64,000 nucleotides of DNA from a virus: the IMG/VR virus record IMGVR_UViG_3300037231_000119, positions 98,447-162,446 of that record; one strand, given 5' to 3'. The position numbers and the translations under genes were made by a program. The stretch's first letter is position 1, and every line of letters begins with the position of its first letter. Under the pieces are notes generated by a model. That model ran no database searches and was not told the DNA's origin. It worked only from the letters and a program-made list of their open reading frames with translations. Shown here one piece after another: positions 60,836 through 63,425 of the stretch.

Positions 60836-62335
60836 ATGAAAAAGAAAAAAGACGAAAACCTACTTATTAAGGCCTATAAATATCCTCTAATTCTTTCTGC
60901 GGGACAGGAAAAAATGATTAGGTCCTGGATGGAACAGGAAAAGTACATATACAATTTCTTTATACAAAAACGTCAATACTTACTTTCCCTAAAAAGATCA
61001 AATTCGGAAGAATACGAGAAAGAATATAAGAAGGGTTTTGCTAAAACGGCCCGTGGAAAACAAGATGTGTTCGCCTGGAAAACGTATTGGAGCTGCGTAT
61101 ATAAGGAATTAGTAAAATCTGAAGAGGTTCTAAGGGAGTCTACAAAAGCAGAATATGATTATTGGCGATTTTCTAGTTTGGGAGATCCCTCTATTTCTCT
61201 CCCAACAACATGCGTTGAGCATGCCTGCGGAACCATAGAAAACATTTTTCTGGCCTATAAGAAAATGTGGGAGTCCCAAAAAGACAAAAAACGAAAAAGT
61301 AAGAAGAGGAAGGGAAAAACGAACCTCTTTCATCCCGAACAAAAGTTTTTAGTGGACGACACGTCTATACCTTGCGGGATAAAAGAAAATGACTGTTCGA
61401 TTGCCATACAGGGCAACTGCACGGCTAGGGTGACTGGCTTTTCAAAAATCGCCAAGGGTAACTATAAGGGGACTAAAGTCCCAAAGAGCCTGAAAATACA
61501 CTATCCGAAACAACACAGGGTTCCTGACGACGCTAGGGTTACCCAGCTCAGAATTATTAAGGACGGAGAATCGTTTTTTCTAAATGTGACCTTTGAGACA
61601 CAAAATAGGGCTGTCGGAGTCCTAGTCAATAATAGGCCCGTTGTCGGTATGGACTTAGGAACGGATAATAAAAAAAGCAAGAATTTTATATCTATGTCCG
61701 ATGGAAGTTTTGAAAGTTATCGCAATTATGAATCCTGCCGATTAATGGATTCTCTAGAAAAAAAGAAGCGTAAGATGCAAAAAGGGCTTAGGAATAAAAA
61801 AGGGGGAAATAAAAATAAGAGAGAGAGGCAGTCTAAAAATTATAAAAAGGCATATGCCAAGATTGCCAAAATAGACGCTCGAATTGCGGCTACTAGAAAA
61901 TATCATTCCAAGATGATCGCCAGCAATATGGCTGAGAGGTTTTCCGCTATTTATATGGAAAATCTGTCAATTGGAAATATGACGGCATCGGCTAAGGGCA
62001 CAAATGAAAGTCCTGGGAAGAATGTCAGAGCTAAATCTGGACTCAATAGGGCTATGTTGAATGTTGCGGCCTATGACTTTAAACAAAATCTTATCAAAAA
62101 GGCTAAAGAGTTTGGAACTGAAATATTTCATGTAAATCCTAGACTTACATCGCAAAGGTGTCAGGAATGCGGATTCACAAGTCCTAAAAATCGCAAGGGA
62201 ACTAGGTTTAAGTGTCAGAAGTGCCATTATGAGACTCATGCTGACACCAACGCCGCTAAAAATATCAAAGAGTTGGGTGAAAGCGGGCTTAATAGTATTA
62301 AGGAACTTCCTCCTAAAATTAAGACGATCCTATGA
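60836..62335 (+). CDS. CRISPR-associated TnpB/Cas12f-like RNA-guided RuvC nuclease (about 499 aa)
   Basis: GGGAG SD before the ATG at 60836. KAYKY.L....Q...YN OrfB-type N-terminus; RuvC-I GMDLG; RuvC-II YMENL; MTASAKGT...[16 protein letters not shown]; zinc ribbon TSQRCQECG...FKCQKC; Ruv[14 protein letters not shown]. Confidence 0.9.
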
Positions 62336-63165
62336 AAATGCCATTCGACACCCTCATTACTGATAGACAGCCTTTCTTTTTCATTGAAAGGGCCTCTATC
62401 ACTGTAAGTGGTCAATGTATAGTGGCTAAGCGCAAGGACGGTAATGTTAATATACCGGTTTCTTCCACTCACTGTTTATTGTTGGGCAATGGTGTCTCTA
62501 TAAGCTCAGAAGCGGCAATGATATGTGCTAAACATGGGTGCTATGTGGCCTTCGTAAAAGGGGGATTGAACGCGCACTCGGTTTGGCACTGCGGAAGGTA
62601 CTCAAAACCAGAAAACTTAGTTAGACAGGTTAAGAACCATAGCGACCCCGTGAAGAGGATCGAGATAGCTAAAAAATTGATGCGACTTAGGTTAAAACAC
62701 ATAAATGAGGATTTTGTAAAAAGTATGGATCTTAACTCTATAGACCGATGTGTCACCATAGAGCAAATATTGGGCCTGGAAGGCTCTATAACTAGAAAGA
62801 CATACGCTGCGCTAAATTCTAGAAATGGCGTGGGATTCAAAAGAGATTCGCAGTCAAGGGAGGGCATAAATTCTAGTCTAACGATCGCCAATAACGCTCT
62901 ATATAACTATGTAGCCACCATTCTAGTCTCTTTGGGTCTTTCCCCCTCAATAGGCTTTCTTCATGGCCAGACCCGGCGTGGAGGTCTAGTATTCGATATA
63001 GCGGATGTCTTTAAGTATCCTGTCTTTATGGAGGAAGTGTTTTCGGGTCAATTTTCTGAAAATAATCAGGCACTTATGAGAGAAATGTCTAGAAAACTGA
63101 GCAAAAGCCGTAATTTCTGGACTAAAGAAATTATCTCAGTTACGCAGGAACTTATATGTTCTTAA
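62332..63165 (+). CDS. cas1: Cas1 integrase, I-E/I-F lineage
   Basis: NIPVSST.CLLLG.GVSIS..A; catalytic E in LGLEG, H in GFLHG and D in [12 protein letters not shown]. Confidence 0.93.
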
Positions 63166-63425
63166 TGGTTAAAACTTCTTCCAAAAATAAGGATATTTTG
63201 CAGTCTCTCAATTCTCTTCTTTCTAGAATAGACACTAAGGTTTGGATAGGACAAGTAACTCAAAGAGTTCAAAGGTCGGTAGTTTTAAGTCTTAAGTTGG
63301 ATATTGGCTCAGAATCGGTATATGGAAATATTTCTAAAAATGTATGTAATTCTAGTTTTTTTAGTGTAAGTGATGGGAATATTAACGAAATAGAAATGTA
63401 CGAAATATTAAAAAGAAATATTTGA
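63156..63425 (+). CDS. cas2: Cas2 (I-E/I-F-like, stand-alone)
   Basis: 89 aa, overlapping the cas1 stop. LLSRIDTKVWIGQVTQRV resembles I-E Cas2 LLEVRAGVYVGDVSAKI. Confidence 0.7.
   Translation: MFLMVKTSSKNKDILQSLNSLLSRIDTKVWIGQVTQRVQRSVVLSLKLDIGSESVYGNISKNVCNSSFFSVSDGNINEIEMYEILKRNI

Follow-up and report, generated by a model that had tools for sequence, protein, structure and literature searches.

Closest Described Systems

Among described CRISPR-Cas systems, the closest counterparts of the adaptation genes considered here belong to two type I subtypes, namely I-E, with the integrase of Escherichia coli (YgbT/YgbF; PDB 4P6I, 5DS4), and I-F, represented by Pseudomonas aeruginosa and by Vibrio phage ICP1 (PDB 8K21/4W8K), the latter providing a precedent for a phage with a complete, adaptation-competent CRISPR system. 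The present analysis addresses a cas1-cas2 pair found in the final 64 kb of the 162,446-bp virus record IMGVR_UViG_3300037231_000119 of IMG/VR, and this whole stretch of 64,000 nucleotides is referred to below as the window. In an operon-like order, the gene for a TnpB-like Cas12 of 499 amino acids (aa) is followed by cas1, cas2, a candidate trans-activating CRISPR RNA (tracrRNA) and an array of 14 repeats. Taken together, the evidence makes it probable that this pair is the spacer-acquisition module of a self-contained, phage-borne type V CRISPR-Cas system, and that it was captured from a type I lineage related to I-E and I-F.

The locus resembles the I-E integrase in its free-standing Cas2 of ~90 aa with the same fold (template modelling (TM) scores of ~0.7–0.8), in the cas1-cas2-array order, in the absence of Cas4, and in the Cas1 motifs LG.EG..R..Y and SP.IGF.H together with the catalytic E/H/D/D residues. 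However, it departs from I-E in that its Cas1 scores under the subtype cut-off, lacks the I-E insert and carries an I-F-type motif, in its linkage to Cas12 instead of Cascade/Cas3, in its 28-nucleotide (nt) repeats devoid of hairpins, and in the serine that its Cas2 bears in place of Glu9. Subtype I-F, in turn, provides the best PDB match of Cas1, a shared motif of 15 letters and the 28/32-nt repeat/spacer geometry, whereas the window Cas2 has no Cas3 fused to it, the Cas1 lies under the I-F cut-off and outside the I-F clade, and Csy genes are absent. The nearest Cas1 proteins outside the phage clade (41–48% identity, joint support of 94/94) are encoded in three type I loci, L003, L022 and L023, which likewise have a separate small Cas2, although these loci carry class 1 effector genes and hairpin repeats, and their Cas2 is weakly recognisable by Cas2e or I-F Cas2-domain models.

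On the effector side, the locus is comparable to the miniature type V systems (Cas12f/V-F and Cas12n/V-U4, as well as the phage-encoded Cas12j, Cas-lambda, Cas12p 'hacker' and Cas12r), with which it shares a small TnpB-derived nuclease with RuvC and zinc-ribbon parts, an array that follows the effector gene, and a tracrRNA, here a candidate. What distinguishes it from the known miniature type V systems is that its adaptation module is a pair of the I-E/I-F group and has no Cas4. Cas4 is usually part of the adaptation modules of known type V systems and, to our knowledge, Cas12j and Cas-lambda loci contain no adaptation genes. According to a previous study (PMC10691335), adaptation modules were captured on at least 12 occasions by Cas12 lineages. 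No adaptation genes were reported in the genomes of the Lalka phages, which encode Cas12r (bioRxiv 10.64898/2026.04.20.719267), Cas1 and Cas2 are unmentioned in the Cas12p preprint, and in a survey of glacier-foreland soil Cas1 and Cas2 accompany a small number of type V loci of huge phages, untyped there (PMC11748809). A literature search of incomplete coverage found no account of a Cas1-Cas2 from the I-E/I-F group in a type V system.

Cas1 from a Third Branch within the I-E/I-F Group

The cas1 gene (62332–63165, + strand) encodes a protein of 277 aa that passes the generic Cas1 models TIGR00287 (137.3 bits, cut-off 71.7) and PF01867 (88.4 bits, cut-off 22.3) and fails every subtype-specific hidden Markov model (HMM). 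The highest of the subtype scores was obtained with the I-E model TIGR03638, which gave 136.1 bits against a cut-off of 215.6, followed by the I-F model TIGR03637, with 103.7 bits in two stretches against a cut-off of 150, and by the models for I-B (73.7 bits), type II (33.7 bits) and type V PREFRAN (31.9 bits); the subtype ranking by PADLOC agrees with these NCBIfam scores. Among PDB sequences, the best match was the I-F Cas1 of phage ICP1 (90 bits), with the I-E Cas1 of E. coli at 67 bits, and a tblastn search of annotated plasmids and phages returned only I-F (~28–30% identity) and I-E (25–29%) genes as the nearest annotated cas1. Membership in the type II or type V-A families was rejected because of the low HMM scores, and a clustering with type II or type V Cas1, which would speak against the I-E/I-F placement proposed at first, was not seen with these two models.

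The first-pass annotation, made from the letters of the DNA, had attributed mixed I-E and I-F signatures to this Cas1, and this view was borne out by the two subtype HMM scores given above, both under their cut-offs, and by alignment. Both open reading frames (ORFs) lie exactly at the positions that it gave, and all the motif strings that it quoted are present. When aligned with annotated references, one Cas1 motif of 15 letters proved to be common to I-F Cas1 proteins (ICP1, Legionella and Csy-linked), its I-E equivalent being H(S/T)GKxLSFVYDIAD. On the other hand, LG.EG..R..Y and SPSIGF(L/I)H resemble I-E (RGIEGSRVRQTY; APAIGFIH), whereas I-F has xxSFPLLH or HGFAVMH. The alignment also revealed that the protein contains neither the I-E insert (KYDPKDW) nor the long I-F insert. 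As regards the active site, the residues aligned to E. coli E141/H208/D218/D221 are kept, and the corresponding E150, H211, D222 and D225 are invariant in 13 family members.

An exhaustive profile-free Cas1 search recovered 21 clusters at an E value of 1e-30 or better, beyond which an I-E-like/I-F-like continuum began. Phylogenies were reconstructed with FastTree (173 rows) and with IQ-TREE under the LG+C20+F+G4 model with posterior mean site frequencies (70 rows, with two I-B outgroup sequences), and the two methods agree. In the IQ-TREE phylogeny, the phage type V clade that contains the window received a support of 100/99, and its grouping with the type I relatives and a small clade, C1, a support of 94/94, while I-F was recovered at 100/100, I-E at 84/88 and a further unlabelled clade, C2, at 100/99; unlabelled I-E and I-F rows were assigned from their position in the tree. 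Judging from these sequence comparisons, the Cas1 is a member of a third clade, outside I-F and outside the less firmly supported I-E, and the deep branching within the I-E/I-F group that had been proposed at first is thereby upheld. A placement in the crown of I-E was rejected given the score under the TIGR03638 cut-off and the position outside the I-E clade; a placement in the crown of I-F was rejected in view of the score under the TIGR03637 cut-off, the position outside the I-F clade, the unfused Cas2 and the fact that no Cas3 was found in the genome.

It could be argued that this is an ordinary I-E (or I-F) Cas1 to which fast phage evolution gave an intermediate look, the clade being a long-branch or sampling artefact. 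The I-E model is indeed the top-scoring one (136 bits), the cas1-cas2-array order is that of I-E, the Cas2 fold is nearest to I-E Cas2, and the I-E monophyly that excludes the clade reaches just 84/88, with weak deep nodes. However, such an explanation is considered unlikely, as the score remains far under the I-E trusted cut-off and as the wider clade comprises ~30 representative clusters at 50% identity, some of them in type I loci, with all non-crown members presenting the same sub-threshold mixed HMM profile. Additionally, in the mixture-model tree no terminal branch was flagged as long and the clade is supported at 94/94, a Cas1 motif of 12 letters is I-F-like rather than I-E-like, and the KYDPKDW insert is absent.

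A Free-Standing Cas2

The cas2 gene (63156–63425, + strand) encodes 89 aa, for which no match was found in Pfam, NCBIfam, PADLOC or PDB sequences; in particular, the I-E-type model PF09707 (Cas_Cas2CT1978) gave no match. Nevertheless, when the protein was modelled with AlphaFold2 from an alignment of eight rows, a beta-alpha-beta-beta-alpha-beta core was predicted with a mean predicted local distance difference test score of 93.4, and each of the top 15 PDB matches of this model in Foldseek was a Cas2 chain from an integrase complex of Cas1 and Cas2, mostly that of E. coli I-E (TM 0.65–0.82). The best example was 4mak, with TM scores of 0.71/0.82, a root-mean-square deviation of 1.9 Å and an E value of 5e-5, and the matches that followed these 15 were the Cas2 N-terminal domains of I-F Cas2/3. 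Thus, the modelled structure has the ferredoxin-like fold of Cas2, whose absence would have been at odds with the identification made in the first-pass annotation.

Sequence profiles gave more graded results. A comparison with four annotated I-E Cas2 proteins by hhalign reached a probability of 76% (E 2.4e-5, 53 columns), with VWIGQVTxRV aligned to GVYVGDVSxRVRE, and a profile of the small ORFs placed I-E Cas2 chains below some designed repeat proteins, at non-significant E values of 0.13 and 0.19. An orthologue from the related locus L001, 52% identical, matched the Pfam model Cas_Cas2CT1978 at 0.0019 with 18.7 bits, under the cut-off of 24.7, and the Cas2 orthologues of the sister type I loci gave weak matches to Cas2e models or to the I-F Cas2 domain. 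Additionally, a homologous ORF of 75–116 aa was aligned from the position 3′ of cas1 in seven other loci.

The possibility that the 89-aa ORF is an unrelated small protein that merely follows cas1, and not a working Cas2, is suggested by the lack of a significant match in the four sequence collections and by the absent catalytic acid. It was judged highly improbable given the high-confidence model, the 15 best PDB matches that are all Cas2, the conservation of both position and sequence in seven other loci, the weak matches of orthologues to Cas2e or Cas2 and the hhalign probability with I-E Cas2. On the strength of the predicted structure, the ORF is a genuine free-standing Cas2 with an I-E-type fold.

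The initial description of a separate Cas2 of 89 aa with no acidic residue after its first strand was confirmed, since the protein has its own ORF and its Ser8 aligns with Glu9 of E. coli Cas2. At this position, glutamate occurs in one of the seven rows of the Cas2 alignment that reach it. In E. coli, the active-site acid of Cas2 is dispensable for spacer integration, and the loss of the acid therefore fits a scaffold role. A predicted complex of two Cas1 and two Cas2 chains, given as alignments, scored 0.02 against a mark of 0.32 in a run without controls, and counts neither way.

Effector, tracrRNA and CRISPR Array

The effector gene (60836–62335, + strand) encodes a TnpB-derived, Cas12-like protein of 499 aa that matches the Pfam model Cas12f1-like_TNB (3.2e-18) and the NCBIfam model guided_TnpB (114.6 bits, cut-off 100). 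Every curated Cas12 subtype was missed, with 67.6 bits against a cut-off of 450 for Cas12f2 and 72.8 against 350 for C2c8, while PADLOC, which works without a curated cut-off, gave Cas12u4 (1.5e-44) and Cas12f (1.9e-44) at ~150 bits each. An assignment to V-F (Cas12f), V-U4 (Cas12n) or V-U2 (C2c8) is not supported by the curated models, the Cas12f2 and C2c8 scores being far under their cut-offs. RuvC-like D/E/D motifs and a CxxC...CxxC zinc ribbon can be read directly in the protein; its solved relatives match only the RuvC/zinc-ribbon half, and its full-length relatives are six metagenomic proteins, beyond which ordinary TnpBs are found. The locus qualifies as type V in that it has a single RuvC effector of TnpB ancestry, with an array 1.36 kb downstream on the same strand.

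The 268-nt region 3′ of cas2 contains the candidate tracrRNA (63451–63666, + strand), which comprises a conserved 5′ body, an anti-repeat (63625–63637) and, at its end, a strong intrinsic terminator (63638–63660) followed by a T run; the terminator stem has 10 bp, eight of them GC pairs. The 5′ end of this candidate was placed by conservation with L001 only, and a search of the region against Rfam gave no match. The anti-repeat consists of the 9–11 nt directly 5′ of the terminator and pairs with repeat positions ~11–21 in four loci (CATCCGTA/TACGGATG, CGTACATA/TATGTACG, TTATGCGT/ACGCATAA and ATTACACACA/TGTGTGTAAT), among which the sequences of anti-repeat and repeat change and their complementarity stays. 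Such covarying pairing is the signature expected of the anti-repeat of a putative tracrRNA.

A short AT-rich leader of 27 nt (63667–63693, + strand) extends from the terminator to the first repeat, and the array (63694–64000, + strand) crosses the contig junction. Five repeats lie within the window, and across the junction of the circular genome 14 repeats and 13 unique spacers are found, the repeat having 28 nt (GTTTTAGGTGATACGGATGGCAGAAAAG) and no Cas6-type hairpin, and all spacers having 32 nt. The array of L001 has 19 spacers, none in common with the 13 of the window, and no self-match was seen among the spacers of the two arrays. A degenerate repeat pattern found nothing in IMG/VR and GTDB genomes, in searches that may omit the window's own record. 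In the related phage L006, two arrays with the same repeat (6308–6765 and 9955–10338) lie in opposite orientation and have several spacers in common, which could be either an inverted duplication or an assembly artefact.

Relatives and Their Gene Context

A word-indexed search with Cas1 recovered 22 close relatives with 38–97% identity. The six of the phage clade whose context was read, P0002, P0004, P0009, P0013 and P0014 (43–72% identity) and P0019 (39%), are all found on phage-like contigs in the order cas12 (428–539 aa), cas1 and a small ORF of 75–95 aa. Arrays with periods of ~59–60 bp were observed in three of these six contigs, which are those that extend far enough, and the neighbouring genes of the phage clade include Cpn60, ribonucleotide reductase, tail tube, baseplate J and SLT. 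Since the locus L002 (55% Cas1 identity) and the window have neighbouring GIY-YIG and SLT genes in common, the cassette is old in this phage lineage. Another relative, P0008, a partial Cas1 with 61% identity, carries the NCBI label of a Rhabdochlamydiaceae metagenome-assembled genome, a thin hint of a phage lineage infecting Chlamydiae-like hosts, or else a binning error.

Three further relatives (P0015, P0030 and P0033) are those of the type I loci L003, L022 and L023, which encode a Cas3fv-like helicase, a Cas7fv-like protein, Cas6, Cas1 and a separate Cas2 of 96–125 aa, with hairpin-forming repeats. Their Cas3 matches the Cas3fv model only from profile position ~108–153 onward, and from this alignment it is read as having no N-terminal Cas2 part. 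In L003 (1–8700), the order is Cas3fv-like helicase, a 125-aa ORF, Cas7fv-like, a 507-aa ORF, Cas6, Cas1 and a 116-aa Cas2, and the array has hairpin repeats with a 61-bp period. Combining an I-E-like order with I-F-variant-like proteins, these loci may represent an unnamed type I variant, for which no name was found in the literature. The next relative, at 31% Cas1 identity, belongs to a canonical I-F1 locus with Csy1-4 and Cas2/3. In all of the clade, the type I relatives among them, Cas2 stands free, and this is not an oddity of the window locus.

A wider interpretation is offered tentatively. According to it, the locus would represent an undescribed type V subtype restricted to one lineage of large phages, in which a recent TnpB-derived Cas12 of 430–540 aa is joined to a Cas4-less Cas1-Cas2 of a third, as yet unnamed I-E/I-F branch; the same branch would also serve the type I variant, with its unfused Cas2 and its Cas3fv-like and Cas7fv-like proteins, and may record the state before the Cas2-Cas3 fusion in I-F.

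Two other observations were made within the I-E/I-F group. Five proteins of 1128–1241 aa (P0064, P0081, P0094, P0131 and P0177) consist of a Cas3 (HD and helicase) with a Cas1 of this group fused at the C-terminus, and we know of no described Cas3-Cas1 fusion. On the Pseudomonas paraeruginosa plasmid NZ_CP027167.1 (L015, 1498–2683), a gene annotated as cas1f precedes one for a 92-aa 'hypothetical protein', whose sole match is to the Cas2 domain of I-F Cas3 (PF21384, 6.6e-9), with no Cas3 helicase annotated in the 3.8-kb stretch; the arrangement has the appearance of an I-F adaptation unit left as a remnant on a conjugative plasmid.

Genome and Locus Layout

The record has a terminal overlap of 127 bp, which indicates a circular genome, and a CheckV completeness of 100%; it is the circular, complete 162-kb genome of a tailed phage. 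The start of cas1 overlaps the stop of cas12, and cas2 overlaps the end of cas1 by 10 nt. In a second, independent assembly of this phage (L026, from Logan), the gene calls are identical, with 499, 277 and 89 aa; this assembly ends at the array and consequently offers no alternative spacer content. At the DNA level, the locus had no match in INPHARED, and a protein-pattern scan of IMG/VR returned one truncated relative only.

The locus is flanked by tail-fibre-like and lytic-transglycosylase-like ORFs. Local alignment revealed an imperfect direct repeat of ~80 bp, with one copy upstream (60760–60839, + strand) and the other after the last CRISPR repeat (genome positions 630–711), which together bracket the cassette from cas12 to the array. 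Both copies encode a peptide ending in (V/I)VKQDLKWE*, and the repeat is a duplicate of the 3′ end of the gene at 60486–60833. The flanking repeats suggest that the cassette was inserted or exchanged via recombination. The cas12 ORF is open from the ATG at 60800 and, since the flanking repeat duplicates the 3′ end of the preceding gene, the ATG at 60836 is the likely true start.

The adaptation genes had initially been regarded as a module detached from Cas3 and Cascade. This holds insofar as neither a Cas3 core nor a Cas7fv-like gene was found in the 162-kb genome; however, the module is no orphan, being joined to Cas12, the candidate tracrRNA and the array. An orphan adaptation module was rejected because Cas12 lies directly upstream of cas1-cas2, and this cas12 is the only TnpB-type gene in the genome.

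Proposed Mechanism and Its Alternatives

In the mechanism proposed here, the Cas1-Cas2 pair would have been captured from a type I system by the phage lineage or by its TnpB-derived Cas12 locus. Cas1 and Cas2 would form an integrase in which Cas2, having lost its metal-binding acid, serves as a scaffold only, and this integrase would measure prespacers of 32 bp and insert them at the leader-proximal repeat, thereby generating the 28/32 geometry. An integrase adding 32-bp spacers fits both the constant length of the spacers and their complete turnover when the window is compared with L001. A 28/32 geometry is usual for I-F arrays, whereas Cas12f arrays usually have repeats of 36–37 nt, which fits a ruler that came with the integrase. 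Through the core of the repeat, the CRISPR RNAs would then pair with the tracrRNA, and they would direct Cas12 to the DNA that it cuts, the targets probably being competing mobile elements. Spacer acquisition by the phage Cas1-Cas2 is itself inferred.

Several observations weigh against a captured and active acquisition module. The window Cas2 has no significant sequence-family match of its own, and the node uniting the window clade with I-F and C2 to the exclusion of I-E is weak (80/68, with two I-B outgroup sequences). The clade labels derive from the contexts that were read, which cover seven of the 12 rows of the type V clade and three of the 16 sister rows. The leader is short (27 nt), with no promoter or integration host factor (IHF) site recognised in it. 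Finally, no protospacer was found for any spacer in the fetched loci, the phage genome and INPHARED: with blastn-short, the full set of spacers gave only self-matches in arrays when compared with the phage genome and with each of the fetched loci, the array had one chance-level match (E 0.7) among INPHARED phages, and the 24-nt prefixes of spacers 1–3 had no match in IMG/VR.

The missing spacer targets and the lost Cas2 acid would also be in keeping with a Cas1-Cas2 that was a decaying or non-functional passenger, or served host type I arrays in trans, the array being kept without phage-encoded acquisition. Most phage-encoded CRISPR systems are without adaptation genes and are thought to borrow the machinery of the host, as proposed for the Cas12r of Lalka phages (bioRxiv 10.64898/2026.04.20.719267). 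This explanation has little probability, however, considering that the ORFs are intact, translationally coupled and kept across phage contigs at 39–72% Cas1 identity, with invariant catalytic residues, and that arrays are wholly different between related phages, with spacers uniformly of 32 nt. Moreover, the repeat, devoid of a Cas6-type hairpin, pairs instead with the candidate tracrRNA, hence it is not that of a type I array. An acquisition module belonging to a phage-borne type V system thus remains the favoured reading.

Implications

By keeping a Cas1-Cas2 of its own next to a miniature Cas12, a phage lineage could, in principle, update its immunity against rival elements. The locus would represent a natural shuffling of modules across CRISPR classes, in which a class 2 effector is supplied by an integrase of class 1 type, and it raises the question of how the choice of protospacer-adjacent motif (PAM) by an I-E/I-F-like integrase is matched to a TnpB-like nuclease in the absence of Cas4. 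Additionally, this Cas1 clade, together with the type I relatives whose Cas2 is unfused, is relevant to the divergence of I-E and I-F adaptation. The compact set, with ~2.9 kb of genes plus the tracrRNA, might serve spacer-recording or editing work and, if the interpretation as a new subtype is true, it would be among the smallest complete, adaptation-competent CRISPR-Cas systems.

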